Positions 7,023 through 24,562 of a DNA stretch of 64,000 nucleotides are shown here, one piece after another. A program made the translations under genes and the position numbers. Each line of letters starts with the position of its first letter. The first letter of the stretch is position 1. Location: the IMG/VR virus record IMGVR_UViG_3300006188_000008, one strand, 5' to 3'. Source of the stretch: a virus. The notes under the pieces were generated by a model. That model ran no database searches. It worked only from the letters and a program-made list of their open reading frames with translations, and was not told the DNA's origin.

Positions 7023-7161
7023 TTTCTCTCATAAGTAATCTTCTTATATGAAAACAAGAACAAGAATGGTCATCTCTTTGAAATATAATTAAGTTCGCAT
7101 ATTTTAAATAATATAAATGACCGTAACGCTGAATTCTTGTGCTAAATAACCCTTCTTTCAT
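7012..7161 (-). CDS. Small protein, YxLxYxNI family (49 aa, not in ORF track)
   Basis: Hand translation contains YYLKYANLIIFQR; ATGA overlap with amidase stop. Confidence 0.5.
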   Translation of the reverse strand: MKEGLFSTRIQRYGHLYYLKYANLIIFQRDDHSCSCFHIRRLLMRENER

Positions 7162-10483: not shown

Positions 10484-11457
10484 TAAAATAATTCATCTCC
10501 ATTAATAACTTGAACACTTTTAGAATAATCTACTGGGCGTTTATAAAAGAAATCAGTCATTTGATTCCCATAAGTTTCTTCTTCAATCCAGTCTGTTTTA
10601 GAAATTAATTCTTTATTTATCTTAAAAGGTTTTTTAAATTTAATTGCTTTCAAACTTCCGTTAATACGATTCTTAACATATTCTTTAAGAAGTTCTTTAT
10701 TAAGAGTTTCCTCATTAAAACTTCCAAGCATCCAGTCAATGATTTTACTCTCCGCTTCAAAAGCCGCTAAAGCTTCTTGCTGAACTTTCTCTTCTAATTC
10801 CTCGTCAAAAAGTTCTGGATGTTCTTTACGAATTACATTTACAAGTTTAATTCCTACTTGAGCATGAATCATTTCTTCATTTTTTGTGTAATTAACTTGC
10901 TGGCTGGTATCTTTTAAAACATTTCTAAATCTATTAAACCAAAGTATGATATAAAATTGCGAAAAAAGAGAAACATTTTCTATAAACAAAGTAAATAAAA
11001 TAAGACTATAAAGATACTGTTTCTTACTGTCTTTATAATATTTATGAAGATACTTTCTAAGGTAATTAACTCTACCTTGAATTATATCTAATTTTAAATT
11101 TTCTTCAAAAACTTGCTGAAGACCTAAAACGTCCAAAAGTTTTTCATAAGCTTTATTATGAATTACTTCTACACTCGCCATTACCAAGCCTAAGTCAACA
11201 AGACTAGGATGAGGAAGATTATCTCCTAATTTTGCCCAAAATTTCTTTACAGCAATTTCGATCTGTCCAATAGCTGAAAGAGTGTTTTTTACTATATTTT
11301 TTTCTTCAGTATTTAAATTAATTTTAAAATCTTGAATGTCACTTTGAAAATTAAACTCATCAGGAGTCCAGTGAGATTGCCACATTGAAGATATAAACTC
11401 GGAGGCCCAAGGATAGCGGTCAGGGCGGCGGGCGATCTGTTCTTGGAAGATAGACAT
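10483..11457 (-). CDS. nrdB: Ribonucleotide reductase class I beta subunit
   Basis: QIE, EVIH...Y (radical Tyr), IENVSLFSQF, EEMIH ligands; C-terminal DFF....DY. Confidence 0.93.
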   Translation of the reverse strand: MSIFQEQIARRPDRYPWASEFISSMWQSHWTPDEFNFQSDIQDFKINLNTEEKNIVKNTLSAIGQIEIAVKKFWAKLGDNLPHPSLVDLGLVMASVEVIHNKAYEKLLDVLGLQQVFEENLKLDIIQGRVNYLRKYLHKYYKDSKKQYLYSLILFTLFIENVSLFSQFYIILWFNRFRNVLKDTSQQVNYTKNEEMIHAQVGIKLVNVIRKEHPELFDEELEEKVQQEALAAFEAESKIIDWMLGSFNEETLNKELLKEYVKNRINGSLKAIKFKKPFKINKELISKTDWIEEETYGNQMTDFFYKRPVDYSKSVQVINGDELF

Positions 11458-11544
11458 TTATTTGATAAACCAATTCTTTAAAATAGTTTATATTAGTTTA
11501 GTTATTGTAATAGTTTACTCCTATTTTTGTTTCACCAAAACAAC

Positions 11545-11572
11545 AAAAAAAAGACCCACCGAAGTGAGTCTT
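11545..11572 (-). terminator. Intrinsic terminator with cUUCGg loop
   Basis: AAGACTCAC-TTCG-GTGGGTCTT plus T tract. Confidence 0.8.
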
Positions 11573-11610
11573 TTATTCTATCAAATCTGGGTAGATTAGT
11601 CAAGAGTTTT

Positions 11611-13191
11611 TTAAACTCTTTCTAAGGCTCCAGTTCCTTGACTAGCATATTTCATAATCTCTTTTTCAAAAGAAGTTTCTTTAAGCATACTCCAATTTCT
11701 AATAACTTCAAACATTCCATTATTAAATCCAGAGACATAGAGAACATCTGGATCTGTAGGAAGTTGAGTGTTAGAAGTTCCTTGAAGATCAATCATAACA
11801 AACTTAGCATTAGGATTATTTCTTTTAATATTTTTCCAAGCTGCGTGTGCTTCGGTAGATCTTCCGTAATTGATATATTGTTTATTGTTTTCATCATCTG
11901 AAAACATAACAAAATAATCTACCTTATGCTTAGCACCTTGAACTGATTGAAGACTAGAAGCAATAGAAGTGCTGCTTCCCGAAAATCCAATTCTATCTAC
12001 ATTAGTAACTAAACTGTCCATAGGATTTAAGTTGGAAGTAATTTCTCTTGCCGAAGAGTCAAAAGTATACACCTTTGAATTAGGATTTTTCTTTAAGAAA
12101 GCACAAGCCATTAAACTAGCTACTTGAAAACAAGTAAGCCTATGGTCTACTCCAGCTCTAGGAGCTTCAGTATTACCATTTACTTTTGCTCCCATTGAAC
12201 CGGAAACATCAATAGATAAAATTACATTTCCTTCCAAAGTTGGAACATTTCGCAAACTATAATCTAAGGCTTGCTGAAGTCCAATACGCATTCTTTGATT
12301 AGTTACGTTTAAATAACTAGTATAGATTTCATGAGGGAACAAATTAGCTTTTACAATTTCTTGCTCATTTGCTAATTTAGCTGCTAGTGTTTCAGCAACT
12401 TGCTGATTATTAAACACTCCCTTTTTCTCTAAATTGTTAATATTCTGACGCAACTGATTCCAAGTCATTTGTTGAGCAAAAATTTGCCATTGTTCCTCAG
12501 AAAGCTTCTCTCCTTTAATTCTTTCAAAAGGAACTCTTGGAATAGGTTGAGTAGTGTCCTTCAACCAATTGTAATAAGTTTGAATTTGCTCGGGCAGATC
12601 CTCAGAATGTTCTCCCTTTCTAATAAGCTTGTAAACAGCCTCTCGTTGCTTGTCTCCCTTGGGAGAGGGATGAGCCATAGCCATGACTGCCGACAAGCTA
12701 GGATTAGCTCCTATTGACTGATTCCATACATCAATAGGACGACGAGAAGAGAACCAAGATTGAATCAACTTACGACCAGCGTAATTTAAATTTTTACTTC
12801 CAAATTGGCCCGTTTGAATAGTTTTCAAAAACCGACGAATACTAGAACCATCGTCACAAACTTTAGGGAAAATCTGTTTCCAATAAGGAGATTTTCTCTG
12901 ACGTAGCAATGCCAGCAAGACAACGCACATATCTTTCATGTGTTGTTTCTTAGTATAAAGAGCACAGGCTGCTACAAATTCTTCAGAACACTCTGAAGAG
13001 AGTTTCTTAACAAGTTCCAATTGCTCAGTTGCCTGAGTATAATATTTGTTATCAAGAAAACCAACACAAATAAGTTTAGCTAAACTTTGCTCTGCGGTTT
13101 CTTTATAAGCAACTGCTCCACTATTGTTAATTTCCGTAGCCTGAGTTGTAGTCGAAGTTCTTTCAGTATAAAGGATACTACTTTTATTCAT
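11611..13191 (-). CDS. Ro60/Rsr-like TROVE + vWA RNA-binding protein
   Basis: N-terminal N.SGAVAY, helical TROVE region, RQNINNL, vWA MIDAS DVSGSM and FSDDE; 526 aa. Confidence 0.9.
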   Translation of the reverse strand: MNKSSILYTERTSTTTQATEINNSGAVAYKETAEQSLAKLICVGFLDNKYYTQATEQLELVKKLSSECSEEFVAACALYTKKQHMKDMCVVLLALLRQRKSPYWKQIFPKVCDDGSSIRRFLKTIQTGQFGSKNLNYAGRKLIQSWFSSRRPIDVWNQSIGANPSLSAVMAMAHPSPKGDKQREAVYKLIRKGEHSEDLPEQIQTYYNWLKDTTQPIPRVPFERIKGEKLSEEQWQIFAQQMTWNQLRQNINNLEKKGVFNNQQVAETLAAKLANEQEIVKANLFPHEIYTSYLNVTNQRMRIGLQQALDYSLRNVPTLEGNVILSIDVSGSMGAKVNGNTEAPRAGVDHRLTCFQVASLMACAFLKKNPNSKVYTFDSSAREITSNLNPMDSLVTNVDRIGFSGSSTSIASSLQSVQGAKHKVDYFVMFSDDENNKQYINYGRSTEAHAAWKNIKRNNPNAKFVMIDLQGTSNTQLPTDPDVLYVSGFNNGMFEVIRNWSMLKETSFEKEIMKYASQGTGALERV

Positions 13192-13195
13192 AAGT

Positions 13196-13591
13196 TTATT
13201 GCATGTCCTTTTTTAGTGTATTTATTAAAAACGTAATTATAGTATTGTTCAATGATGTAGGAGCCAGTGCGTTACATTTCCCTCTAAGTTGATTTACATA
13301 AGGCAACCCGCCTGGTTTTCGTAGCACTTCTGCAATATAAATTAATTTGACATTTAGGTCAAACAAGCCCACAATAGCTCTATTTTCTGTAGGAAAGTAA
13401 CCTTCATGACCTACAGCATTACGCATGTAACTGCCCCAAGATTTTTGTATTTCGGAATCAACCGATAAAACGGTTCTTAACCCCAAAGGCAAAACTAAAC
13501 TTAGAGCTTCAGTTCCCAACGTATCTATGCCTGTTAACGGTATATGTTTTTTATTTAAGCACAATGACCAATCTGGATTAATAAATTGCAT
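13196..13591 (-). CDS. Hypothetical protein
   Basis: ORF between clpB and TROVE, same operon. Confidence 0.6.
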   Translation of the reverse strand: MQFINPDWSLCLNKKHIPLTGIDTLGTEALSLVLPLGLRTVLSVDSEIQKSWGSYMRNAVGHEGYFPTENRAIVGLFDLNVKLIYIAEVLRKPGGLPYVNQLRGKCNALAPTSLNNTIITFLINTLKKDMQ

Positions 13592-15575
13592 TGTTATTCT
13601 CCACTAGTTTCTTATTGTAAGCATAATAGACTATTTCAGTTCCAGTCTTAGTTGAAACTAATTCTGCACAAATATAATCTATGTCATTAGCTTCAAGCAG
13701 TTTTTTACTTACAGGATCTTCAATTAGTCTAACTACATTACGTTTAATTAGACGAGCACCAAAACCAGATTCATCATCATCTTTATTAATTTCATCTCGT
13801 TTAGAGAGAATAAAATCAATAACCTCTGTAGGCAGTTCTAGTTGGATATTCATATCTGCAAGCTTAGAGATAACTTTCTTTACTTGCAAATGGAAAATCT
13901 GTCGTAGAGTTTCTTGAGTCAAAGCCTTGAATTTAATAATATCGCCAATACGATTAATAAACTCAGGTGGGAATCTTTGCTTCATAGTTTCAATAGTCAT
14001 GTTAGTAGTCATGATAATTACACAATTAGTAAAATTAACAGTTCTACCTTGACCATCAGTCAAACGTCCTTCGTCAAGAAGTTGAAGGAGAATTTTATAA
14101 ATATCCGTATGAGCTTTTTCAATTTCATCCATAAGAATTACTGAATAAGGCTTTCTACGAACAGCTTCAGTTAATTGACCACCAGCTTCGTAACCAACAT
14201 ATCCAGGTGGCGGCCCAGTAAGACGATTAACTTGATGCTTTTCAGCAAATTCAGACATGTCAAGACGAATAAGGAATTTTTCATCATCAAATAATTCCTT
14301 AGTCAAGGCTTTAGAAAGCTCAGTTTTTCCAGTTCCTGTTGGGCCCATAAACATAAAGCTTGCTTTAGGTTGTTTGGGATCAGCTAAACCTGTTCTAGAA
14401 CGTCTAACAGCATTAGAAACTTTAGTTACTGCTTCGTCTTGAGCAAGAACACTTTCAGAAAGCCTTGTTTCCATTGAAAGAAGAACTTGTTTCTCATCTT
14501 TCAAAAGACTAGTTACTGGAATTTTAGTCCAGAGAGTAATAATCTTGGCAATATCTTCTTCAGTCACTTCTAACTTAAAGAATTTATATTCAAGATTATT
14601 TACTTTCTCAAGCTGTCTTTTTAGTTCGGGAATGTCTTTATACTTAATTTCTGAAACTTCTTCTAAATCAAGATTTTCTTCTAAAGAAATTTCTAGTTCG
14701 GCAATTTCTGCTTGAATTTTAACTTTAGTTCTAAAACTACTAGCTTCGTTCTCCCAAATGAGTTTCTGTTCCTCAGTTAATTCGGCCGGTGGTTGATACA
14801 TTCTACTGGATTTTAAAGCAGCCATTGCTTCGTCAATAAGATCAATTGCCTTATCCGGCAAATTTCTTTCAGTGACATATCGTTCCGAAAGAACAGCTGC
14901 GGACTCTAGAGCTTTAGTTGTAATGTTGATTCCATGAAACTCTTCATATTTAGTTTTAATATGATTAAGAATTTTTATGGTTTCTTGAACGGTCGGCGGT
15001 TCGATAAACACAGGCTGGAAACGCCGTTCGAGTCCTGCATCTTTTTCAATATTTGCTTTATATTCCGAATAAGTAGTTGCTCCAATACAACTAAACTCGC
15101 CCCTAGCAAGAGCAGGCTTAAGTAAGTTAGCGGCATCCATAGATCCTTCCGTTTTACCTGAATTGCACATAGTATGAATTTCATCAATAAATACTAAAAC
15201 TTTTCCGTTAGAATTTCTAACTTGGTCTACAACCTGGTCTAGACGTTCTTCAAAGTCACCTTTATATTTAGCTCCGGCTAGAAGCTTACTAATTTGCAGG
15301 GAGTATAGTTCTACGTCTTTTAGCTGCTCTTGAACATTACCGTCTGCAATATCTTGAGCGAGTTTTTCAATGATAGAATTTTTACCAACGCCCGCATTTC
15401 CAATAAGAACGGGATTATTTTTACGACGGCGAGCTAGAATATTAGTAATTCTAAGAATTTCGTCTTCTCGACCCAAAACGGGATCTAGAAGTCCCTGTCG
15501 AGCTTTCTCTGTTAGGTTCGTGCCGAACCGTTCCAAAGGCGGGCGATCATCCGTGGGTTCAAAATCAACTTCCAT
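13578..15575 (-). CDS. clpB: ClpB-like Hsp100 ATPase lacking the N-terminal domain
   Basis: LDPVLGR..EI, NBD1 GNAGVGKN/FIDEIH, AGAKYKG pore loop, short coiled coil, NBD2 GPTGTGKT/MDEIEKAH, GYVGY; no IGF loop. Confidence 0.88.
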   Translation of the reverse strand: MEVDFEPTDDRPPLERFGTNLTEKARQGLLDPVLGREDEILRITNILARRRKNNPVLIGNAGVGKNSIIEKLAQDIADGNVQEQLKDVELYSLQISKLLAGAKYKGDFEERLDQVVDQVRNSNGKVLVFIDEIHTMCNSGKTEGSMDAANLLKPALARGEFSCIGATTYSEYKANIEKDAGLERRFQPVFIEPPTVQETIKILNHIKTKYEEFHGINITTKALESAAVLSERYVTERNLPDKAIDLIDEAMAALKSSRMYQPPAELTEEQKLIWENEASSFRTKVKIQAEIAELEISLEENLDLEEVSEIKYKDIPELKRQLEKVNNLEYKFFKLEVTEEDIAKIITLWTKIPVTSLLKDEKQVLLSMETRLSESVLAQDEAVTKVSNAVRRSRTGLADPKQPKASFMFMGPTGTGKTELSKALTKELFDDEKFLIRLDMSEFAEKHQVNRLTGPPPGYVGYEAGGQLTEAVRRKPYSVILMDEIEKAHTDIYKILLQLLDEGRLTDGQGRTVNFTNCVIIMTTNMTIETMKQRFPPEFINRIGDIIKFKALTQETLRQIFHLQVKKVISKLADMNIQLELPTEVIDFILSKRDEINKDDDESGFGARLIKRNVVRLIEDPVSKKLLEANDIDYICAELVSTKTGTEIVYYAYNKKLVENNNAIY

Positions 15576-15606
15576 AGTTATCTACCTCCTAGTTAGTCTC
15601 TCTCTA

Positions 15607-15635
15607 AGTATAAGAGTAACTTGACTCAAAGTCAA
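15607..15635 (-). promoter_or_regulatory. Sigma70-type promoter for clpB-TROVE
   Basis: TTGACT-17 bp-TATACT followed by AGGAGG RBS. Confidence 0.7.
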
Positions 15636-16804
15636 CTGACCGTTTGTAACAAATTTGTTAACAAATCCTCGTAAGTCTCGCTTCTAAGAAGAAACTCTTG
15701 AAATAAAGCGGGACTAATTTTATTAATATAAGGGATAAACTTTTCTTCTTCAAATTGCTGATCTGGGAAAAATATTTTTAAAAATTCTTTGTATTGATAT
15801 AAATCACAATTTTCAAATTTCCAATCTCTATCAATACGTCCAGCTCTAAGCAAAGCTTTATCTAATTTCTCAACATGGTTAGCAGTTAAAATCATAATAA
15901 CTCCTTTTGGAGCAATCAAACTATCAAAAGCAGCTAAGAAGTCATTAAATTTTGGCATATCAGCATCGCAAGCTTCTCGTTGATTATAAATACAATCAAC
16001 ATCGTCAATCAATACAATTGACTCTGAAGAAACTCTACTGATTAGTTTTTGAATATTAGAACATTCCATTAATGAAGCTGAAGATATTACATTGATATCT
16101 CTATTTAATTTAGCAGCTAAATACTGAGCAACACTGGTTTTCCCTGTGCCTGGCAACCCATGCAAAAGATATCCTCTTCTAAAAGGAATATTCTTAGAAC
16201 GATATATTTTTTTATTCTTTAAGAAATTTTTAGCATCATTTAAAATTTCAGTTAAACGGCCTTCAGCCAAGATTGGCTTTAAAACTTCTCTGCTATAAAA
16301 ATTACCTAAATGCTGTTTACTTTCCTTATCAAAAGTATAAACACATCTAGCCGTATCTTTACTTAGATAATGATCTCTTGCTAAGGAACAGAGATACGAT
16401 TCTATGTGTTTGATAGACTCTTTAGAAGTAATATTTATACTAGAAGTTTCTTTCTTAGTTGAATTCCCATCCTTGTCTGTAGTGCAAATAAAAATCTCTG
16501 AAAGAATAATTTCTTTACCTTCGTGATTTACAGTTACAGATCTAGGAGCAAATTCAAAACTACCTTCTGTATACGTTCGTCTAAAATGACTAAAATCTAC
16601 CATATTAGAAATGCCTTGTTGTTGGCACATAACTTCTTTTAAGAGTCTATAGACATCTTTAGTATAAGAAACGGTAACAAGGTATTTATTTCTATGCATA
16701 AATTTTTTATAAGCGGAATTAATTCTGTTAGCAACAGAAGATTTTACTAGATTTCCAACTGTTTCAACTGTCTTTGTTACAAACAGATCCTTCAGCAGAT
16801 TCAC
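15632..16804 (-). CDS. BCS1-like AAA ATPase
   Basis: PFRRGYLLHGLPGTGKTS, IDDVD, TANH..KLDKALLRAGRIDR. Confidence 0.8.
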   Translation of the reverse strand: MNLLKDLFVTKTVETVGNLVKSSVANRINSAYKKFMHRNKYLVTVSYTKDVYRLLKEVMCQQQGISNMVDFSHFRRTYTEGSFEFAPRSVTVNHEGKEIILSEIFICTTDKDGNSTKKETSSINITSKESIKHIESYLCSLARDHYLSKDTARCVYTFDKESKQHLGNFYSREVLKPILAEGRLTEILNDAKNFLKNKKIYRSKNIPFRRGYLLHGLPGTGKTSVAQYLAAKLNRDINVISSASLMECSNIQKLISRVSSESIVLIDDVDCIYNQREACDADMPKFNDFLAAFDSLIAPKGVIMILTANHVEKLDKALLRAGRIDRDWKFENCDLYQYKEFLKIFFPDQQFEEEKFIPYINKISPALFQEFLLRSETYEDLLTNLLQTVS

Positions 16805-16997: not shown

Positions 16998-17191
16998 AAA
17001 ACTTGACTTATACAATAATCATTAATTGCTTTATACCAAGCCTTTTTCCTAATATATTTCCCATGCCTAATTACATAATTAAAATCTAAATTTATATCTC
17101 TTACACATTTTACACACAAATAAAGATGTAAACTAACAACATTAGTTGCTGTATAACAATGTAATACTTCATTATGTTTATAACAACGCAA
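16994..17191 (-). CDS. Small Cys-rich zinc-ribbon protein
   Basis: CYKH...CVKC...; ends QVL. Confidence 0.55.
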   Translation of the reverse strand: MRCYKHNEVLHCYTATNVVSLHLYLCVKCVRDINLDFNYVIRHGKYIRKKAWYKAINDYCISQVL

Positions 17192-17446
17192 TTAGAGAAC
17201 TGCCTTAATAAAATTATATATATTCCATTCTCTAACAGCCCTAGTAACTAAAAAATTACTAGGGTAACTACTTGTCGGATTTACATATCTAACAAAAATT
17301 TTTCTAGAGATTTGATCACAGATATGACAGGAGTAGATTAAGGCGTTCTGATTATTAGAATCTAAAGCATAGCTAGTCCGAAATTTAGAAGATGAACTGT
17401 TACATCTGTAACAAGGTATGATGTTTTGATCACTAAAACTAAACAT
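17192..17446 (-). CDS. Lar-like zinc-ribbon protein
   Basis: IPCYRC...CHIC...AVREWN. Confidence 0.55.
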   Translation of the reverse strand: MFSFSDQNIIPCYRCNSSSSKFRTSYALDSNNQNALIYSCHICDQISRKIFVRYVNPTSSYPSNFLVTRAVREWNIYNFIKAVL

Positions 17447-17483
17447 AAAAAAATAGAGCTTTCGCTCCTTTACAAATTTTTAA

Positions 17484-17568
17484 TGGTAGGGAATGCCGGA
17501 CTCGAACCGGCACGGATTTCTCCACGAGGCCTTAAATCTCGGGTGTCTACCAATTTCACCAATTCCCC
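17484..17568 (-). tRNA. tRNA-Leu(TAA)
   Basis: GGGGAAT/ATTCCCT A CCA; D-loop GG; CGAGA-TTTAAGG-CCTCG; long variable arm; T-loop TTCGAGT. Confidence 0.92.
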
Positions 17569-17623
17569 ACGTATGTTTTGCCACAATATGTCTTAAGTAT
17601 TGCTTACTTACGTTATTTATTTT

Positions 17624-17776
17624 TTATAGTTTAGTTAAGATTTTTACATAACTTTTTACGTAACATTCGGAGTAATGTCCGGTTCTTTTAGACCAATATA
17701 TTCTATAATAATTACCTTTATTGTTCCAAATCATTATTCCAAGGACTGGAAATTTATAATCTTTTACTAAATACAC
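17624..17776 (-). CDS. Small protein (50 aa, GTG start, not in ORF track)
   Basis: MYLVKDY..LGIM...RIYWS...KL; resembles 17776-17961 and 18425-18610. Confidence 0.45.
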   Translation of the reverse strand: MYLVKDYKFPVLGIMIWNNKGNYYRIYWSKRTGHYSECYVKSYVKILTKL

Positions 17777-17961
17777 TATAACCTACAAATAAATTTTATA
17801 TTTTCTAACCAATTATAATATAACATAGAATAACCTCCATGGCTCCAATTAATAATACATTGATCTTCTTCATAATTTAATCTAGGCGTTAGTATTCCGT
17901 AACATTTAGTCAATTTAGACTGAACTAGCCAAACACTCATAGATAGTCCTCTTACTTGCAT
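17776..17961 (-). CDS. Small hypothetical protein
   Basis: VWLVQSK...GIL...INWS...RL. Confidence 0.5.
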   Translation of the reverse strand: MQVRGLSMSVWLVQSKLTKCYGILTPRLNYEEDQCIINWSHGGYSMLYYNWLENIKFICRL

Positions 17962-18114
17962 AGATTAAGGCAAACAAGACTAAGATGTCAAGACGATCAC
18001 TTGTATACTAGTATAGCTGTAGAAGCTCCTAAAGTTATTCCTACAAATAAAGCTATTAATATAAAAGTAAGAAAAACTTGAATTCCTCCATAATAAAGTT
18101 TTTCTACATAGTCT

Positions 18115-18417
18115 CTATCCATCTAATTTCCATCCATATTGAATATTGTCTTTTATATCAGGAATACAGTGAGTTTTCATGTGAAATAAGGCTTCTTGAT
18201 GAAGATCAATAAATTTTTCTAACCAATGTGAGGAGTAATGAGGAAATTTATAAGGGTGCCATACTTCGTCATCTTCTACTAAATATCTAATCAGTAAATG
18301 GTTGTCACTTTCTCTTTTCACCAAAACAACTGCATGACAAAACCCCTTAAAGACTTTATAAGTATTAGGATATATGTTTTCTGGATTACTATCTGGTATA
18401 AGATCTTTATCTAACAT
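18115..18417 (-). CDS. Hypothetical protein
   Basis: ORF in operon orientation. Confidence 0.55.
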   Translation of the reverse strand: MLDKDLIPDSNPENIYPNTYKVFKGFCHAVVLVKRESDNHLLIRYLVEDDEVWHPYKFPHYSSHWLEKFIDLHQEALFHMKTHCIPDIKDNIQYGWKLDG

Positions 18418-18424
18418 TTTATTC

Positions 18425-18610
18425 CTAAAGTTTAGCTTTTATATAATAGTAAACATGAATCCATCTTAAATAAGTCCATCCTGGGAAACATCTATCTGAA
18501 TAATATATAGTTCCACACTCTAAATTGTCATAATCAACTAAGTCTTGATTTTTATCTAAGACTAAAATAGCGAATAGATTCATATCAGTTTTACTTTGTA
18601 GTAAATACAA
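18425..18610 (-). CDS. Small hypothetical protein
   Basis: MYLLQSK...AIL...IYYS...KL. Confidence 0.5.
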   Translation of the reverse strand: MYLLQSKTDMNLFAILVLDKNQDLVDYDNLECGTIYYSDRCFPGWTYLRWIHVYYYIKAKL

Positions 18611-18786
18611 GGATTCCTCATGTTACGTCTAGAAGAAATTACATTTCTTTACATTAGATTTCTCTAATGTTTCTTGTTTGTTTTGTTTTTAACAATTAAG
18701 TATTAGTATAAGCCATTATTGTTTACTCACTTCTAGAAAGTGAACTAACATAATACACATTAAGAATGTTACTCCTAAATAAATAA

Positions 18787-19050
18787 TCATGATATATAAA
18801 TAACTTCTTTTATTTCTTGCAATTCTAGAGGAATGTTATCTGCGTCATATCGACTATCCCAACACAAATCCCATAAATTTCTAATAGAGTCTTTTTTACC
18901 TATAGCTCTGGTAGTTTTAACTACAATTTCATCTACTAAATAAATCTGATCTTCGTTATTAGACTCCATATCATCAGGAATAACTACAGGTAAGTTGGGC
19001 ATAGATAAAAGTTTAAATGCCAACTCATGAGCTTTAATGTATTTAAGCAT
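18787..19050 (-). CDS. Hypothetical protein
   Basis: AHELAFKLLSMPNLPV, a phage-type small protein. Confidence 0.55.
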   Translation of the reverse strand: MLKYIKAHELAFKLLSMPNLPVVIPDDMESNNEDQIYLVDEIVVKTTRAIGKKDSIRNLWDLCWDSRYDADNIPLELQEIKEVIYIS

Positions 19051-19233
19051 TTTATTCTTTCACAAAATAAAAGAAAGAGACTCCGTAAAGAGTCTCTTAT
19101 AATTTAGAATAATGTAGTTCCGATTAGAACTACTAAGCATCCGAGCATTACACTAGCAAATTGCTGCTCTCCTTTGATAATAAAGGCTAAGCACAATAGT
19201 CCTACAGTTAGGATAGTAATGTTGGGATTTTGT

Positions 19234-19563
19234 TTAACCATCTTTCTTCGTCAATTTACTACGAAGTAGATCTCCACTAGAACCTTCTAGAAGACTATTG
19301 TCAATAATGATAGAGTGACCATTCTTACTATCGTAGAAAACAATATTTCCTTGACGATCCTCCAAAATTTGATTCACATGAATAGTTACCTTAGACATAG
19401 TTTCATTCTCCTTAGTGTTTATTAACATACCAGTTAAAATTTGATTAAGATCACAAAAACATTCAATACCTCTGGATCTTTTATCTGAATCACATTCACA
19501 GATATAATTCAAATTATACTCCCGTCCAGTTCCAGCGAACTGCTCCCTTACGAAAGTGACCAT
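19234..19563 (-). CDS. Hypothetical protein (true start likely later, MSKVT)
   Basis: ORF in operon orientation. Confidence 0.45.
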   Translation of the reverse strand: MVTFVREQFAGTGREYNLNYICECDSDKRSRGIECFCDLNQILTGMLINTKENETMSKVTIHVNQILEDRQGNIVFYDSKNGHSIIIDNSLLEGSSGDLLRSKLTKKDG

Positions 19564-19786
19564 CTACCCACTGTTCCTTACCTTGTGTTCGTGTAAGGCC
19601 ATAGGAGCCACATACAAAGCTGTCTCCGCTCATGCGACATCTAGCTCGAATCTCGCTCTCAAGCTTATCAGTTTGTTCTTGAATAGGTTTTAGAAGGTTC
19701 TCATATACGAGAGCATCTTGCTTAAGTTTACGCAGTTGCTCAAATTTTTGATGAAGATCAGTGTCTACTCCAATTTGGACAGTCAT
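19514..19786 (-). CDS. Small coiled-coil protein
   Basis: Heptad-rich N half, beta-rich C half. Confidence 0.55.
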   Translation of the reverse strand: MTVQIGVDTDLHQKFEQLRKLKQDALVYENLLKPIQEQTDKLESEIRARCRMSGDSFVCGSYGLTRTQGKEQWVDGHFRKGAVRWNWTGV

Positions 19787-19986
19787 AGTCTATTAATACC
19801 TCTATCTCTATAAATATCCCAGAACATGGTTGTTGCTGCCACATAACAAAGTTCGTTATGTCCAGTTAATCTTAACTGATACGAACAATAAAGTAGACCT
19901 AAAAGAGGTAACCCTTTTTCTAAAAGATAGAATAAAATATTTACATATTTATTGTCCATAAAAAGTTTTGGCATAATCCTTTTCAT
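19783..19986 (-). CDS. Small membrane protein
   Basis: Hydrophobic stretches; ATGA overlap. Confidence 0.5.
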   Translation of the reverse strand: MKRIMPKLFMDNKYVNILFYLLEKGLPLLGLLYCSYQLRLTGHNELCYVAATTMFWDIYRDRGINRL

Positions 19987-20368
19987 AAACTAAAGTTATA
20001 TACCCAAACAATCTACCAAGATGGAATAATCCATTAAAAATAAATAAAAAAGTAATAGAAAACCAAGAATTATTTAATAAAGTTCCAATTCCTATAAATA
20101 AATGGGAAATTATTCCATACATAAAAAACACCCATAAATGAGCATCTGTAAAAGCTTTTTCAAAGCCTTCAAGATTTTTACTAAACTTAGGATTTAAAGA
20201 AAAAGCCTTTAACATCTCCCATAGGCCTAATTTTTTTAGGATCCAAATTGGGAAGTAGAAAATTTTACGTAAAGTTAGTCGTTTAGACTTATCGTCTTTT
20301 AGATACATGTTATTAATACAGGCTTCCTCATAGAAATTTAAACCCATAAGTCCCTTTCTAACATACAA
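19949..20368 (-). CDS. Membrane protein
   Basis: Two hydrophobic segments in the C half. Confidence 0.55.
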   Translation of the reverse strand: MYVRKGLMGLNFYEEACINNMYLKDDKSKRLTLRKIFYFPIWILKKLGLWEMLKAFSLNPKFSKNLEGFEKAFTDAHLWVFFMYGIISHLFIGIGTLLNNSWFSITFLFIFNGLFHLGRLFGYITLVYEKDYAKTFYGQ

Positions 20369-20801
20369 TTAATTTTCTCTTATACAAAGAAGATTCTCTA
20401 TCTCGATAAGTTATAACTCCAGTTCGTAAACAACCTTGCCAATAAACAAACCAAGTATCTTTTCTTAATTCTTTCCAAATTAGAAGAGTATGGTCAATTT
20501 TAGAGGTTATCCAAAACTTTTGGGAATTTCTAATAATTACCGAAGTCCTACCTTTTTTATGGTTTGTTTTTATAGCTTTAAATTGTTCTTCAGTGACAAT
20601 TAAACTCTCTGAGTCATAATAACTTAATCCCTTTAAGCCAACATAAGCTTCAGAAGCTTTTAAGTAAGAATTTGAAGGTGCCGATAAATCTAAAGTATAT
20701 AATTTCATTTTAGCCTTAAAAGAAAAAAAGACTAAGTTATTAACTATACTTTTATAAAAGTAATCGAAGAGGAAAGGGAGGTAGGAAGGGAAACTCTTCA
20801 A
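20358..20801 (-). CDS. Hypothetical protein (true start likely MKLYTL)
   Basis: ORF in operon orientation. Confidence 0.5.
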   Translation of the reverse strand: MKSFPSYLPFLFDYFYKSIVNNLVFFSFKAKMKLYTLDLSAPSNSYLKASEAYVGLKGLSYYDSESLIVTEEQFKAIKTNHKKGRTSVIIRNSQKFWITSKIDHTLLIWKELRKDTWFVYWQGCLRTGVITYRDRESSLYKRKLIVC

Positions 20802-20875
20802 TTATATTTTAAAGTAAACACAACTTAATCTTTTAGAAATTCAAGTGAACGACCAGGATATCACTTAAATTGTTT

Positions 20876-20952
20876 TGGTGGGAAGAGAATCTTGGCGAGA
20901 CCCGACTTCGGAGTTTTCAATTCCGCGCTCTAACCGTCTGAGCTATCTTCCC
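20876..20952 (-). tRNA. tRNA-Phe(GAA)-like, aberrant T-loop
   Basis: GGGAAGA/TCTTCCC A CCA; CGGAA-TTGAAAA-CTCCG; T-loop TCGCCAA. Confidence 0.8.
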
Positions 20953-20962
20953 ATGTAGCCTT

Positions 20963-21126
20963 AGATTTAAATAGAAATTTGTTAAAAGTGATAACACATT
21001 TTTTACTAGCGCGTTTACCATTCCGCCACTCGTCTATATAGACGAGGCAGGACTTGAACCTGCAAATCTTTCGATACTAATTCCTCATAGAATGTATTGT
21101 TATCTAAACACAAACTTCTAAAACCT
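20963..21126 (-). ncRNA. Circularly permuted tRNA mimic A (YrlA-like, Leu-type body)
   Basis: 5' stems, TACATTC, ATTAG, variable arm, GCAGG-TTCAAGT-CCTGC, acceptor closed by ATAT loop, D-arm GCG-GAATGGTAAA-CGC, CTAGT, complementary 3' stems. Confidence 0.85.
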
Positions 21127-21167
21127 GCAAATTATCGAAACGCTACTAACGATAATTTTAATTAAAA

Positions 21168-21255
21168 AGAGAATTCAACAAACACGAACGGATCAGGATC
21201 GACTAGGAAGGGACGCCAACAAACAAAAGGAGACAAAACACTTGTTGAATTCTCT
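21168..21255 (-). ncRNA. Hairpin RNA with 14-bp stem and 60-nt pyrimidine-rich loop
   Basis: AGAGAATTCAACAA/TTGTTGAATTCTCT starting 1 nt after a tRNA CCA, followed by a T tract. Confidence 0.55.
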
Positions 21256-21256
21256 A

Positions 21257-21333
21257 TGGTGGAGCAGGCTACTTGCCGAGTAGCGACCTCTGCGTTTTCA
21301 ATGCAACGTTCTAAACATCTGAACTACCGCTCC
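21257..21333 (-). tRNA. tRNA-Phe(GAA)-like, aberrant D- and T-loops
   Basis: GGAGCGG/CTGCTCC A CCA; TTGCA-TTGAAAA-CGCAG; D-loop lacks GG; T-loop TCGGCAA. Confidence 0.78.
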
Positions 21334-21931
21334 ATATATTAGATCTATAAAATTCTTTTAACCAAAATCCCTTAGGCTTGAGTTCTATTTGAAATTTTTT
21401 TGCTTTATTAGCAATAGTTTTATCTGAACATCCAAAAATTTTTGCAATTTTTGTTAACGGTAATTTTTCTATAAGATCTTTTAATTCTTCTTTACTTATA
21501 TCAAATTTAGAATGTTTAGGTAAAGATAGAAAGCACTTTTTACACAGTGTAGAATTAGGGTCTTTTACAAATTCATTGCATATATTACATTTTTTTGTAA
21601 TAAAAACACCCTGAATAGTGTAAACACCTTCCTCAGTTAAAGATCTATCTTTCTTTAGACAAGATTTTTTCTTAAGATTTTTTCCTCCAAAAGTTTCAGT
21701 TTGGCTGTGACAATTTTTGCAAAGAAATCTAAGATTTGACAACTCATTATTTCCAGGACATCCGTCAATATGATCTAGATCTAGAGACAAAGGTTTGCCT
21801 TGCCAATAAGGTTCTTGATTACATATTTGACAAACGTAAGGAATTAAGTTTTCTTCTAAAATAATTTTACGATAAAGAGAAGATCTTATACGTTTATTAG
21901 TATCTTTTTCTCTTATAAAGATATTAGTCAT
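21311..21931 (-). CDS. HNH endonuclease with C-terminal HTH (homing-type)
   Basis: CQIC...LDLDHIDG..GNN..SNLRFLCKNCH; C-terminal LTKIAKIFGCSDKTI. Confidence 0.85.
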   Translation of the reverse strand: MTNIFIREKDTNKRIRSSLYRKIILEENLIPYVCQICNQEPYWQGKPLSLDLDHIDGCPGNNELSNLRFLCKNCHSQTETFGGKNLKKKSCLKKDRSLTEEGVYTIQGVFITKKCNICNEFVKDPNSTLCKKCFLSLPKHSKFDISKEELKDLIEKLPLTKIAKIFGCSDKTIANKAKKFQIELKPKGFWLKEFYRSNIWSGSSDV

Positions 21932-22025
21932 AATAACCCTAGTATTATGACTATATAAAAAAGAAACCTTTTCTGTTAAAAAATCCTACCTAAAAAATTA
22001 TTCGGGACACAGATAATTTCTTTAA

Positions 22026-22101
22026 TGGTGGAATCTGACAACAATCACATTTGCCGATCTGAGTTTTTCACGCCCATGCTTTATTACTAAGCTAAGATTC
22101 C
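22026..22101 (-). tRNA. tRNA-Phe(GAA)-like, strongly degenerate T-arm
   Basis: GGAATCT/AGATTCC A CCA; TGGGC-GTGAAAA-ACTCA; no D-loop GG; no TTC loop. Confidence 0.65.
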
Positions 22102-22106
22102 ATAAC

Positions 22107-22183
22107 TGGTGGGAGAAAGTGGAATTACACGCACTGACCTCCGAGGGTTCAATTCGGCGCTCTGACTACTGAGCTATTCTCCC
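22107..22183 (-). tRNA. tRNA-Phe(GAA)-like, aberrant D- and T-loops
   Basis: GGGAGAA/TTCTCCC A CCA; CCGAA-TTGAACC-CTCGG; T-arm AGTG-CGTGTAATTC-CACT. Confidence 0.75.
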
Positions 22184-22256
22184 AGGAGGCTTCAATCGTC
22201 GCTTAAGGAGGAAATTATTCTCTGCCCGAAAGTCTGATCAAAACCTTGTATAACTT

Positions 22257-22375
22257 TTAAACTTGCTGAACAATTTTCAAAATTAAACTAATAACTAAAA
22301 CAGCTAAGAATAATTTCAAAAGAAGTTGACCAGCACAATAGCTACTATGAAGAATATTACTGCCCAATGAAGCAT
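22257..22375 (-). pseudogene. Frameshifted DUF1328/UPF0391-like small membrane protein remnant
   Basis: Frame 1 MLHWAVIFFIVAI; second frame AGQLLLKLFLAVLVISLI; central GFGG segment missing. Family recognised from memory. Confidence 0.45.
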
Positions 22376-22476
22376 TATTGGTTAACTACAACGCGTTCAA
22401 CCCAACGCAATACTTCCACAAAAACTTTAGCTCCAGTAAGAGCTGCTTTCAATCCAAGCCAAACAACAGTTTTCAT
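22375..22476 (-). CDS. 33-aa amphipathic small protein
   Basis: GGAG RBS; MKTVVWLGLKAALTGAKVFVEVLRWVERVVVNQ. Confidence 0.45.
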   Translation of the reverse strand: MKTVVWLGLKAALTGAKVFVEVLRWVERVVVNQ

Positions 22477-22477
22477 T

Positions 22478-22696
22478 TTACTCCTTATAACTCGCAGTAG
22501 TGACATTAAATACAGGTCCTGTCATGCCTACAGAACACATAGAGTCTTCTAGTTCACCTTCTAGAACTAATTCATAACCTTCTACTTGAAGATTTTCATT
22601 CAATCCTTCCAAAGTAAACATTTGGCCTTCTTCGGTTTTTAGGACAAGATGTCCACCTTCAAGGTCATTCTTTTCTAAAGTTCCGGTAAGAGTCAT
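22478..22696 (-). CDS. Small beta-barrel/OB-like protein (possibly DUF5818-like)
   Basis: GTLEKNDLEGGHLVL...LEGEL...C..G. Confidence 0.55.
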   Translation of the reverse strand: MTLTGTLEKNDLEGGHLVLKTEEGQMFTLEGLNENLQVEGYELVLEGELEDSMCSVGMTGPVFNVTTASYKE

Positions 22697-22722
22697 AATT
22701 TTTCTCTTTTCAAAATAATAAG

Positions 22723-22851
22723 CCCGTTAAAATCTTCTAAATAATCGTGGGACAGATGCTCTATCCATTGAGCTACTATAGAATTTCTTCATATAGACAG
22801 GAATTGAACCTGTAACTTTCTGTGGGAATGTAGATTATTTAATAACACGGG
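22723..22851 (-). ncRNA. Circularly permuted tRNA mimic B (YrlA-like, Arg-type body)
   Basis: CCCGT and AAATAAT stems, TACATTC, ACAGA, ACAGG-TTCAATT-CCTGT, acceptor closed by GAAA loop, GCTC-AATGGATA-GAGC, TCTGT, complementary 3' stems. Confidence 0.85.
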
Positions 22852-22856
22852 TTTGT

Positions 22857-22935
22857 TGGTGGAGCAAACTACCTCGGTAAGTAGTGTCCTTCGGGTTTTC
22901 AATCCGACGCTCTTGGACCACTGAGCTATCGCTCC
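22857..22935 (-). tRNA. tRNA-Phe(GAA)-like, aberrant 8-nt T-loop
   Basis: GGAGCGA/TTGCTCC A CCA; TCGGA-TTGAAAA-CCCGA; ACTAC-TTACCGAG-GTAGT. Confidence 0.78.
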
Positions 22936-22941
22936 ATATAA

Positions 22942-23099
22942 AAGAATTTAATACTTAAAGATTATCCAAATTATTTGACTTCAGCCTCTCGTCCACAGAC
23001 TCTTCGTTTATTTCTAAACTGATTAGCCCGGAGGGATTCGAACCCCCGTTTCTCGTAAAAGAAAGAATGTATTTTGGAAGTAGACACTATTAAATTCTT
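22942..23099 (-). ncRNA. Circularly permuted tRNA mimic C (YrlA-like, Glu-type body)
   Basis: 12-bp outer stem AAGAATTTAATA, TCCAAA/TTTGGA, TACATTC, GGGGG-TTCGAAT-CCCTC, extended acceptor closed by GAAA, GAC-GAGAGGCTGAA-GTC. Confidence 0.8.
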
Positions 23100-23101
23100 A
23101 T

Positions 23102-23177
23102 TGGTGCCCAAAGCCGGTTCTACCCACGGCCACCCCTACGGTTTCAATGTAGTGCTCTACTACTGAGCTATTTGGGC
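23102..23177 (-). tRNA. tRNA-Phe(GAA)-like, aberrant D- and T-loops
   Basis: GCCCAAA/TTTGGGC A CCA; CTACA-TTGAAAC-CGTAG; GCCG-TGGGTAGAAC-CGGC. Confidence 0.75.
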
Positions 23178-23185
23178 ATAAATTG

Positions 23186-23251
23186 CCTAAGTTAACTTTT
23201 AAATTCATTAACTTAGGACTTAACTACATAGTTTTTAAATTCACTATGTAG
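23186..23251 (-). repeat. Two tandem hairpins with the same TGAATTTAAAA loop
   Basis: CTACATAGT-GAATTTAAAA-ACTATGTAG and CCTAAGTTAA-TGAATTTAAAAG-TTAACTTAGG. Confidence 0.7.
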
Positions 23252-23274
23252 AATTGAAGTGAATAACCACGTTC

Positions 23275-23350
23275 TGGTGGGAAAGGATGGGATTGAACCA
23301 CCGACCTGCTCTTTTTCACGGAGCCGCTCTAGTCTCTGAGCTACCTTCCC
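23275..23350 (-). tRNA. tRNA-Phe(GAA), canonical T-loop but no D-loop GG
   Basis: GGGAAGG/CTTTCCC A CCA; GCTCC-GTGAAAA-AGAGC; T-loop TTCAATC. Confidence 0.85.
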
Positions 23351-23431
23351 AAGTCAGGACTTCCTAGTTAAAAATGAATCAATTATAAGCAGTTCAAATG
23401 AGTGTAAATTGACTCTAAACACTAAGAAGTT

Positions 23432-23572
23432 TGGCGGAAGAGGAGAGATTTACACTCACCATCCAAATTAGTGAATTCTAAATCCGGTCGGCAAGAATTC
23501 TTAAAATTACTTCGCAACGAATACTGAAACGAATTAATTACCTAATTTGTATTTTTGTTAAATTACTCTTCC
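23432..23572 (-). ncRNA. 141-nt tRNA-like RNA with acceptor stem, T-like arm and CCA
   Basis: GGAAGAG/CTCTTCC G CCA; GTGAG-TGTAAAT-CTCTC; internal CAAATTAG/CTAATTTG and GAATTCT/AGAATTC helices. Confidence 0.6.
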
Positions 23573-23625
23573 GTAAATCCTGAATTTGATTCAAAGGTCA
23601 ACAAATTTCCTCAAATTCAGGTGTT

Positions 23626-23733
23626 AGTCAGCGACGACTGACTAGTTTTGAAATTCAGTGTTTCCACTTTCATTCGGTGTCTTCAGCGATTTGTAGCTTC
23701 CTTTTTCTCTTCAGTCGCCGTTCGCTGTCGACT
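23626..23733 (-). ncRNA. Leader RNA with paired ends and purine-rich loop
   Basis: AGT..CAGCGA..CGACTGA pairs with TCAGTCG-TCGCTG-ACT; begins at the predicted TSS. Confidence 0.5.
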
Positions 23734-23738
23734 TCGTT

Positions 23739-23767
23739 AATATACAGGATCGGTTCCGACTTGTCAA
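23739..23767 (-). promoter_or_regulatory. Sigma70-type promoter of the RNA array
   Basis: TTGACA-17 bp-TATATT. Confidence 0.8.
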
Positions 23768-24069
23768 GCGTTTTTAGAAAAAACTTTGAACTTCTTTCTT
23801 GTCCCCTACTTGTCCCATACTATAGGAGAAAGACTAACCTCCTCGGATAGACTGGAAGCTAGTCAACATCCAGTTATCTTCGGTCTTCTCAAGAACATAG
23901 AACTCAAACCCTACTAACACATGCATGTTATCAAAGTAACGTTGTTCATTCTCCTGTAAATCTTTTTTTAGTTCTTCTATATCTTCGAATTGTAAATACA
24001 TAAATTTTTCCTAAAGGTGTTTTTATTTTATTTCTACAATCCTTTATATTCAGGAGGATTGAGATTATT

Positions 24070-24330
24070 ATGAATAATGTTATTTCTTGGTTTGCCAGTT
24101 TAATCGCTGGTCTGCTTCCCATCATGCTTGCGGCCGAAGCCGACGGTGGAACTGGTGCAGAAAAGAAAGCCAAAGTAGTTGCCGAAATCATGAAACATCT
24201 TAAAGATCCTAATGTTCCTATTAACATGCCCACTTGGTTGCCCGAAGGTGTTGTTACTTGGGTCATTAGTCTTTTAGTTGATTTGATTGTTACTCAGTTG
24301 AATAAACTTGATTTTTTCAAAAAATCCTAA
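24070..24330 (+). CDS. Small membrane-associated protein (holin-like?)
   Basis: AGGAGG RBS; two hydrophobic helices around GAEKK. Confidence 0.65.
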   Translation: MNNVISWFASLIAGLLPIMLAAEADGGTGAEKKAKVVAEIMKHLKDPNVPINMPTWLPEGVVTWVISLLVDLIVTQLNKLDFFKKS

Positions 24331-24562
24331 GTCTATATAAGACTTTAGAAACTGAAAAGTTAAAGGTTAAATTCGAAAAAGATTCTTTTAAACTTGTTGC
24401 CGAAGCTATGGAAAAACTTCAACCTAGAGGAAAAGAAGTTACGTGGTTAAAAGGCACCTATCTAGAAAATAAACCAGTTGTTCTTCCAACTATAATTGTA
24501 GGAAAAGACTCGTCTCCGACGCCTGACCAATTGGTAAATAATCTAATCAATAAGTTAAAGCC

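Follow-up and report, generated by a model that had tools for sequence, protein, structure and literature searches.

Results

The array and its surroundings

The DNA analyzed here is a stretch of 64,000 nucleotides (nt) from IMG/VR virus record IMGVR_UViG_3300006188_000008 (the window), in which seven genes for tRNA-Phe(GAA)-like RNAs are interleaved with three tRNA mimics, very likely Y RNAs, upstream of a gene for the Ro60 protein. The window represents the minus strand of a complete phage genome of 145,021 bp with direct terminal repeats and 33.5% GC, and the identical sequence was carried by at least 13 wastewater and bioreactor DNA sequencing runs; four DNA runs with partial matches yielded short identical fragments or unrelated pieces only, and no variants. 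The array itself occupies about 3 kb of non-coding sequence at positions 20838 to 23767 on the minus strand, which is also the strand of every other window feature for which coordinates are given below. On one flank lie divergently transcribed replication genes (SNF2 helicase and DNA polymerase) and on the other a run of small open reading frames (ORFs) that leads to an AAA ATPase, a ClpB-like ATPase, the Ro60 orthologue (11611 to 13191) and ribonucleotide reductase, with about 8 kb of ORFs between the array and the Ro60 gene. An earlier note on this DNA had listed the order of the elements and had placed structured RNAs 1 to 6 nt after the encoded CCA ends; both the order and the spacing held.

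Seven covarying tRNA-Phe(GAA)-like genes without a full elbow

The seven genes with anticodon GAA called in the earlier note were confirmed on the minus strand by a covarying cloverleaf. Phe1 (23275 to 23350) has a canonical T loop and a D loop without GG; Phe2 (23102 to 23177) has a T stem of 4 bp and a T loop of 10 nt; Phe3 (22857 to 22935) has the D-loop GG and the T loop UUACCGAG; Phe4 (22107 to 22183) again has a 10-nt T loop; Phe5 (22026 to 22101) is the most divergent copy; Phe6 (21257 to 21333) has the T loop UCGGCAA; and Phe7 (20876 to 20952) has the D-loop GG and the T loop UCGCCAA. With the Rfam tRNA model, six of the seven scored 40.5 to 52.4 bits, and Phe5, at 28.5 bits, fell just below the gathering score of 29. 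The copies were 41 to 74% identical in pairwise comparison. A cloverleaf with stems of 7/4/5/5 bp (the T stem being 4 to 5 bp) was present, and across the seven copies it was paired in 92.5% of cells, with 17 of 21 pairs changed on both sides and covariation in all four stems; 0 of 500 shuffles reached the observed value, and slid controls were 36 to 47% paired. Residues U8, A14, U33, G34, A35, A36 and A73, together with an encoded CCA, were invariant in 7/7. Bacterial phenylalanyl-tRNA synthetase (PheRS) reads an identity set composed of G34, A35, A36, A73 and the 3' CCA, and this set was found in every one of the GAA genes.

Other positions were altered. The pair 31-39 was A.C or C.A in all seven, so that the anticodon loop has no Watson-Crick closure, and position 37 was not a purine in Phe4 (C37). 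The UUCRANY T loop was found in Phe1 alone, which has no D-loop GG; the D-loop GG was found in Phe3 and Phe7 alone, both of which have odd T loops; and the remaining copies were without both. A full elbow (G18 G19 plus T54-Psi55-C56..A58) was therefore present in 0/7 copies, which makes "elbow-less," the term used in the earlier note, a fair short description of RNAs that do retain their T stems. Normal elbows are found in the phage's other tRNAs (Arg-UCU, Ile-UAU and Leu-UAA), which confines the elbow change to the GAA set. The mismatch at positions 31 and 39 extends further: tRNA-Leu(UAA) (17484 to 17568), with its normal elbow, has A31.C39 as in the GAA set, the mismatch was found too in the tRNA-Phe(GAA) of locus L005 (6700-6773), and it may be a clade trait of tRNAs reading UUN codons. 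Two further resemblances, the pairing of anticodon GAA with T-loop UUC and the occurrence of CUACAUU in the anticodon stem of Phe2, were judged to be likely coincidences. Outside the window, tRNA-Ile(UAU) (G000 40355-40447) measures 93 nt and has an insertion of about 20 nt 3' of the anticodon arm, possibly an intron or else an extended variable arm.

The closest relative found, L019, encodes a Ro60 that is 53% identical to that of the window phage, and its contig starts within an orthologue of Phe6, of which the 3' half is kept. The T loop UCGGCAA of this orthologue was identical to that of Phe6, the T stem had undergone a double change from A-U to G-C, and the 3' end was kept, while the surrounding spacers could not be aligned to those of the window. 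A second tRNA-like gene of L019, the counterpart of Phe7, kept UGAAA, A73 and CCA with a different anticodon stem and an odd T arm. Tracing the GAA series among the sampled relatives led to the window phage and L019 only; the Ro60-adjacent arrays of the sampled relatives carried ordinary mixed tRNA sets (Met, Phe, Ala and many others), with one tRNA-Phe(GAA) each in the equivalent arrays of L007 and L005. Moreover, L005, whose Ro60 is 45% identical, had tRNA-like genes with non-canonical T loops and with D loops without GG. Of the four close Ro60 relatives, the window phage, L019 and L005 thus have elbow-degenerate tRNA-like genes, and L007 has normal tRNAs. Because the stems covary, because U33, GAA, A73 and CCA are invariant and because the odd T loop is kept in L019, the seven GAA genes are under selection; on these comparative grounds they are structured tRNA-Phe paralogues and not decayed copies. 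The alternative, that they are pseudogenes left by endonuclease-driven or recombinational duplication, would fit the HNH gene inside the array and the rejection of six of the seven genes by ARAGORN, which accepted Phe1 only, but it is very improbable in view of the pairing and compensatory changes, the invariant anticodon, A73 and CCA, and the cross-phage conservation with compensatory change in L019.

Searches for further relatives returned little. A 24-base pattern from the 3' half of Phe6 had no match in viral contigs, nor did a single-sequence Ro60 scan of viral contigs; a ClpB-based scan for close relatives gave generic homologues only, at 40 to 45% identity; and Ro60 profile scans added, beyond the protein-database relatives, only relatives at 45% identity or less.

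Three mimics with the architecture of YrlA-type Y RNAs

The three mimics announced in the earlier note were confirmed at 22956-23079, 22738-22845 and 20982-21104, within modules C (22936 to 23101), B (22720 to 22856) and A (20972 to 21120), respectively. These modules carry the parts of a tRNA in permuted order on top of a long closing stem: directly behind the T arm stands a closed hairpin that replaces the acceptor stem, and two bases separate this hairpin from the D arm. Thus, mimic C has a 12-bp closing stem, UACAUUC, a T arm, a long acceptor-like hairpin and a type-II-like D arm, and mimic A has an 11-bp closing stem, an internal loop GUUUA/ACUUUUA, a T arm, a perfect 7-bp acceptor hairpin and a Leu-type D arm. 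T arms of the form GGUUCRAnUCC and D arms containing GG were present in all three. The earlier note had described the two RNA classes as complementary, one keeping acceptor and anticodon and losing the elbow, the other keeping only the elbow, and as a description this is correct. The folds of mimics A and B, which like the spacer folds below were compared with shuffled sequences, had z values of -3.9 and -2.9. With a covariance model, R2, mimics A and B scored 78.4 and 73.6 bits; mimic C scored 60.3 bits, a value to be read with the presence of its own sequence in the R2 training set. Across 14 modules drawn from seven lineages of phages, covariation reached every variable pair of both the T stem and the 7-bp acceptor-like stem, and each pair of the latter showed five to nine double changes.

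Conserved motifs pointed in the same direction. UACAUUC occupied the same place in mimics A, B and C and corresponds to the YUAY element that opens the V region; the TACATTC motif of the earlier note thus aligns with the YUAY at the start of the V region described by Chen et al. (PMC4201824). (U/C)UACAU stood at the YUAY place in L005, L007, L011, L022, L026 and L037. At the place of the GNCGAA motif, the window modules carry CCGUGUUA, UAGUGUCU and UUGUGUUU, and L026 and L037 carry GGCGAAUG-type motifs; the canonical GNCGAAUG occurs in these distant modules, with GUGUY instead in the three window modules. A U-rich 3' element is common to the modules, as UYUUUAAS in the window and as UUUUUGWC elsewhere. 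By architecture and conserved motifs, we consider it highly probable that the three mimics are YrlA-type Y RNAs.

A fourth, smaller RNA (23351 to 23431) carries the handle of these modules. It consists of a closing stem and this handle, GUGUUUAG...AUUUUUAAC, without a tRNA-like domain (z -2.9), and shares with mimic A the 9-mer GUGUUUAGA and UUUUAAC, a likeness that comes from a reading of motifs and not from a statistical test. This hairpin is a predicted YrlB-like mini-Y, in which the handle stands without T and D arms. In L007, two mini-Ys lie directly 3' of tRNAs.

Y modules accompany Ro60 in many phages

The Ro60/Rsr orthologue (11611 to 13191, 526 aa) lies 7.8 kb downstream of mimic A and matched Pfam vWA_Ro60 with an E value of 2e-15. 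The Pfam TROVE model had no match in the genome, although it matched the homologues P0002, P0005 and P0010; because it misses the window protein, the identity of Ro60 was set by a family profile against solved structures, which matched 1YVP, 2NVO, 9NEN and 9L5Y over the full length of HEAT ring and vWA domain (residues 12-493) with E values of 4e-27 to 1e-25.

In its suggested check, the earlier note had asked whether the array and the TROVE gene co-occur in related genomes. Of 46 loci with a Ro60 gene, 24 contained R2 matches, 48 in total; every match shared the strand of Ro60, most lay within about 1.5 kb of it, and many of the matched loci were outside the R2 training set. Run over the whole 145-kb genome, the model found the three array modules only, and in a 224-kb phage five of six matches lay within about 1.5 kb after Ro60. 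In L007, L005 and L022, tRNAs and Y modules stand directly upstream of Ro60, and immediately downstream of the L011 Ro60 gene comes an alternating series of tRNAs and at least five modules; together with about 18 further loci, these four have modules within about 4 kb on the Ro60 strand. These results indicated that the link between array and Ro60 is co-conserved, the modules traveling with Ro60 on the same strand, and the Ro60 linkage proposed in the earlier note is thereby borne out in many independent phage and metagenome loci. The compact arrangement of L007, with the same flanking genes, is probably ancestral. On L026 (1-10000), a metagenomic contig of about 193 kb that is probably a jumbo phage, Ro60 lies among 26 tRNAs and a tmRNA, with three Y modules bearing the canonical GNCGAAUG. 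In Myxococcus phage Mx1, whose Ro60 is 31% identical, a tRNA array lies near Ro60, and no YrlA match was obtained there at E < 0.1.

Ribonucleotide reductase genes follow Ro60 in the window (8837-13191) and in every close relative with downstream sequence (L001, L005, L008, L020, L021 and L022). The usual partner of Ro60 and Y RNA, PNPase, releases nucleoside diphosphates, which are substrates of ribonucleotide reductase. It is conceivable that Ro60, Y RNA and PNPase turn structured host RNA into nucleoside diphosphates for the reductase and so salvage it to deoxynucleoside diphosphates.

Other elements of the array and neighboring genes

A sigma-70-like promoter, TTGACA-17-TATATT, is predicted at the head of the array (23739 to 23767, 11/12 matches), where the earlier note had put one; the site at 23767-23739 was the best in the 7.5 kb scanned (17000-24500). 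Next comes a structured leader (23573 to 23738) with a 10-bp GC-rich stem and an 11-bp hairpin (z -3.6, with 0 of 200 shuffles as good), and then a 141-nt tRNA-like RNA (23432 to 23572) with a 7-bp acceptor stem, a T-like arm (loop UGUAAAU) and a G-CCA end, which folds only weakly better than shuffles (z -2.1). Two L005 RNAs (7147-7311), each about 80 nt long, likewise combine a 7-bp acceptor stem with a T-like arm, whose loops read UUAAAGU and UUAAAAU, and terminate in G-CCA; they fold no better than shuffles (z -1.3 to -1.5). Their resemblance to the 3' part of the 141-nt RNA suggests a third RNA class in these arrays.

Of the spacer hairpins claimed in the earlier note, the twin hairpins, the pyrimidine-loop hairpin, the mini-Y (23431-23351) and the terminal hairpin stood up against shuffled sequences, and those at 21167-21112 (z -1.0) and 22025-21985 (z -0.3) did not. 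A short hairpin and the twin hairpins occupy 23178 to 23274; in the twin hairpins (23178-23250, z -5.5) the stems differ around a common loop, GAAUUUAAAA, which could be a protein-binding site. The pyrimidine-loop hairpin (21168 to 21256, z -3.6) has a 14-bp stem and a pyrimidine-rich loop of about 60 nt, and directly 3' of its closing stem we read a GUGUUU like that of the Y modules. In the terminal hairpin (20838 to 20875, z -2.9) the loop contains UCCUGGU; a hairpin at the same place in L019 (330-400) keeps this loop on a different stem, and a motif AUCCUG(A/G)UC is found in both the pyrimidine-loop hairpin and the terminal hairpin.

Small ORFs at 22375 to 22696 encode 72 aa with weak similarity to DUF5818 (E 0.0096, below the Pfam cut-off) and a 43-aa hydrophobic product behind an AAGGAG site. 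An ORF of the HNH homing-endonuclease type (21311 to 21931, 206 aa) matched PHROG 10822 with an E value of 6e-32; its last seven codons overlap Phe6, so that its stop codon lies inside that tRNA-like gene. Its family is widespread and mobile (235 homologues) and was rejected as a marker for close relatives, being too large and mobile. In three diverged phages, the window phage, L019 (2743-3552) and L007 (7962-8708), HNH genes of this family adjoin tRNA genes. The HNH gene within the array recalls SegB-driven tRNA amplification; the copies here are ancient.

Upstream of Ro60 (13578-16804) lie the ClpB-like double-AAA ATPase and a second AAA ATPase, and the synteny of ClpB with Ro60 is common to the window phage, L019 and L008. 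An 840-aa protein (3733-6255) with a LAGLIDADG domain is probably the product of an intein-bearing gene. A peptidyl-tRNA hydrolase gene is located at 390-956 and is present too in L005, L008 and phage Mx1. A genome search found neither L/F-transferase (Aat) nor the RNA-repair protein RtcB; a non-ribosomal use of Phe-tRNA through an N-degron link to the Clp-like ATPase was dropped because the genome is without Aat.

Discussion

We read the array as the non-coding first part of the kind of early operon that is typical for phages encoding Ro60, with tRNA-type genes and Y RNAs interleaved. Transcription would begin at the 23767 promoter, with a possible second start ahead of the HNH gene, and the RNA would be cut by host tRNA-processing enzymes, by RNase P at the 5' ends and by 3' trimming at the encoded CCA, so that the tRNA-like units would double as processing sites. 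The freed Y RNAs may then load onto phage Ro60 made further down the same strand, and by analogy with Deinococcus, Salmonella and phage phiLo, the Ro60/Y particle may engage host PNPase or other tRNA-binding factors via the displayed elbow. The seven tRNA-Phe-like RNAs would most likely be charged, as the elements read by PheRS (G34, A35, A36, A73 and CCA) are kept. Once charged, they would give the phage a redundant tRNA-Phe pool of diversified sequence to draw on whenever host tRNA-Phe comes under attack or runs short; the elbow change, the mismatch at 31-39 and the variation of the stems may then be escape features. For the composite, a co-transcribed, tRNA-processed noncoding RNA operon that supplies Y RNAs for Ro60 together with a selected and diversified tRNA-Phe pool, our confidence is moderate; the specific role, that of a chargeable tRNA-Phe pool resisting host attack or limitation, is favored tentatively.

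Several observations weigh against this reading. The sequencing runs listed for the array include no RNA run. The "single transcript" of the earlier note is not visible from the sequence; a second promoter-like site (21979-21950, 10/12 matches) stands ahead of the HNH ORF, just past an AU hairpin with a U run, and the two may split the array into two transcripts. The window modules share the Ro60 strand but lie 7.8 to 10 kb from the gene and not within 4 kb, and the GNCGAAN0-1G motif, the putative Ro60 site, is absent near their 5' ends. With the Rfam YrlA model, mimics B and A scored 29.0 and 26.6 bits, far below the gathering score of 69, and C was not reported, while a tandem tRNA pair elsewhere in the genome scored 27.1 bits. 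Because that pair scores alike, the YrlA score was rejected as proof of a Y RNA, a pitfall of YrlA and tRNA scoring about which Chen et al. warn (PMC4201824); since the score alone proves nothing, the assignment rests on architecture, covariation and the R2 model. The GAA copies are old and divergent and do not represent a recent amplification, and a literature search found no defense nuclease specific to tRNA-Phe. Finally, the tRNA elbow is recognized by RNase P and the ribosome (PMC4810234), and elbow-poor tRNAs may be poor processing signals and poor decoders. Since elbow loss argues against efficient RNase P recognition and decoding, the readings of the GAA RNAs as decoys or as Ro60 ligands keep some weight.

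The first of these, which is the panel of decoys envisaged in the earlier note, holds that the tRNA-Phe-like RNAs take no part in translation and soak up a host nuclease that targets tRNAs or a tRNA-modifying toxin, with the elbows of the Y RNAs as a second decoy, and that tRNA processing merely releases the panel. Codon usage cannot explain seven diversified copies of one anticodon, and the elbow, which is needed for contacts with the ribosome and RNase P (PMC4810234), is degenerate in all of them. Furthermore, phage tRNAs are established counter-defense tools, and the Ro60-like gene of phage Bas63 counters a defense system (PMC11482910). However, the literature search leaves the decoy with no known target, a sponge needs neither Phe identity elements nor a 7-bp acceptor stem and an encoded CCA in all copies, and the corresponding arrays of relatives are made up of ordinary tRNAs, those for Met, Phe and Ala among many more. 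We regard a decoy panel as possible yet unlikely.

Ordinary supply is somewhat less likely still. Here the genes would provide extra tRNA-Phe for an AT-rich phage, the odd loops would be tolerated drift and the neighborhood of Y RNAs would be accidental. In its favor, codon compensation accounts well for the other phage tRNAs (Leu-UAA, Arg-UCU and Ile-UAU), UUU makes up as many as 35 of every 1000 codons, and L007 and L005 each have a single tRNA-Phe(GAA) in the equivalent array. Seven copies are nevertheless disproportionate: Phe accounts for 4.7% of codons, fewer than Lys, Glu, Asn or Ile, none of which has a comparable tRNA series; AAA, GAA, AAU and AUU are commoner than UUU yet have no cognate phage tRNA gene; and among Ile codons the phage tRNA-Ile(UAU) serves the rare AUA only. 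These counts ruled out codon compensation as a complete explanation of the seven copies. Moreover, the odd T loop is conserved and not drifting, and the other tRNAs of the phage keep normal elbows.

That the elbow-poor RNAs are instead ligands or substrates of the Ro60 particle, whether as its cargo, as regulators or as species under its protection, we consider improbable. Ro60 binds misfolded RNAs with free 3' ends, and elbow-degenerate tRNA-like genes recur in three of the four close Ro60 relatives; the normal tRNAs of L007 and the retention of GAA, which this reading leaves unexplained, speak against it. We give a similarly low probability to a joint role of both RNA classes in a single counter-measure, directed at a host factor docking on the elbow: the Y elbows would serve as bait or adaptor, and the chargeable, elbow-less tRNA-Phe family of the phage would be spared and would sustain translation; such a factor could be a tRNA-targeting defense nuclease, or the docking agent could be the phage Ro60-PNPase machine attacking host tRNAs.

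The interest of the array is twofold. On the function of phage Ro60 there are one structure paper and one genetic hint of counter-defense, and the window phage offers a compact set of candidate partner RNAs, namely three YrlA-type modules and one or two handle-only RNAs; as the window handle differs from GNCGAA, it can define what this Ro60 clade recognizes. The seven selected tRNA-Phe paralogues that lack an elbow are, in turn, a natural experiment on the need for the elbow in bacteria. If charged, they are a rare phage tRNA family with an altered tertiary core, and if uncharged, a new class of tRNA-shaped RNA; both outcomes would say something about the ways in which phages shield or manipulate the tRNA pool.

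Comparison with known systems

The earlier note had called the Ro60-linked system undescribed, and in this respect it has to be corrected: the YrlA architecture is known (PMC4201824), a phage Ro60-Yrl-PNPase assembly has been reported (PMC12135203), and Y RNAs have been suggested near the Ro60-like gene of Bas63 (PMC11482910). In the work of Chen et al. (2014), 254 bacteria and 22 phages had YrlA beside Ro60, with several Y RNAs per locus (PMC4201824). Like YrlA and YrlB (RF02553), to which bacterial and mycobacteriophage Ro60 (Rsr) binds, the window modules place a permuted tRNA-like domain on a stem with a protein-binding region, with YUAY before the V region, and there are several of them on the Ro60 strand (PMC4201824). 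In the known system, precursor processing is documented: YrlA and YrlB are processed from one precursor in M. smegmatis, and YrlA with a 7-bp acceptor stem, the feature that makes it an RNase P substrate and that the window modules share, is cut by RNase P and receives CCA (PMC4201824). Unlike YrlA, the window modules reach only 27 to 29 bits against a gathering score of 69, have GUGUY for GNCGAA, and are interleaved with tRNA-like genes at 7.8 to 10 kb from Ro60.

The Ro60 of Thermus phage phiLo binds two phage Yrl RNAs and host PNPase (2025; PMC12135203, which also gives as background that Ro60 binds misfolded noncoding RNAs), so that a phage Ro60 with phage Y-like RNAs upstream is common to both and capture of PNPase is a plausible mechanism. 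The phiLo genome matched the window Ro60 over residues 25-402 at 24% identity. Yrl1 and Yrl2 differ from the window modules in being stem-bulge-stem RNAs with a CGAA motif, and they have been reported with neither a tRNA-like domain nor a tRNA array. In phage Bas63, the Ro60-like gp130 counters the Ppl defense system and lies beside a stretch of tRNAs, some of which were suggested to be Y RNAs (preprint, PMC11482910); the protein belongs to a different lineage, however, and the RNAs were not analyzed in that work.

The counter-defense tRNAs of phages, which include anticodon-loop changes (van den Berg 2023, PMC10264068; Azam 2024, PMC11555353), and the endonuclease-driven (SegB) amplification of tRNA-Tyr genes in phage (PMC13096335) share with the window array altered features of the anticodon arm, several copies of one tRNA and a homing endonuclease inside the cluster. 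In those cases the tRNAs, for Lys, Tyr and further amino acids, have normal elbows and form recent, identical repeats, unlike the seven old Phe copies of the window, which are 41 to 74% identical and have altered elbows. As proposed for the window, neighboring RNAs are freed by tRNA processing in several systems. Mitochondrial tRNA punctuation and the E. coli 3'ETS-leuZ sponge provide functional RNAs within tRNA operons. GOLLD RNA, as cited in PMC9569102, likewise lies within tRNA arrays. None of these three involves Ro60 or a series with one anticodon throughout. Elbow-reduced mitochondrial tRNAs work, or may work, without the interaction of G18/G19 with the T loop; they have co-evolved ribosomes and factors, whereas the window phage mixes in tRNAs with normal elbows in one genome. 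We found no earlier account of an array with a single anticodon in every tRNA-type unit and with the elbow missing throughout. The Ro60-linked RNA system of the window is thus of a known kind, and its new part is the GAA-only, elbow-degenerate tRNA series.

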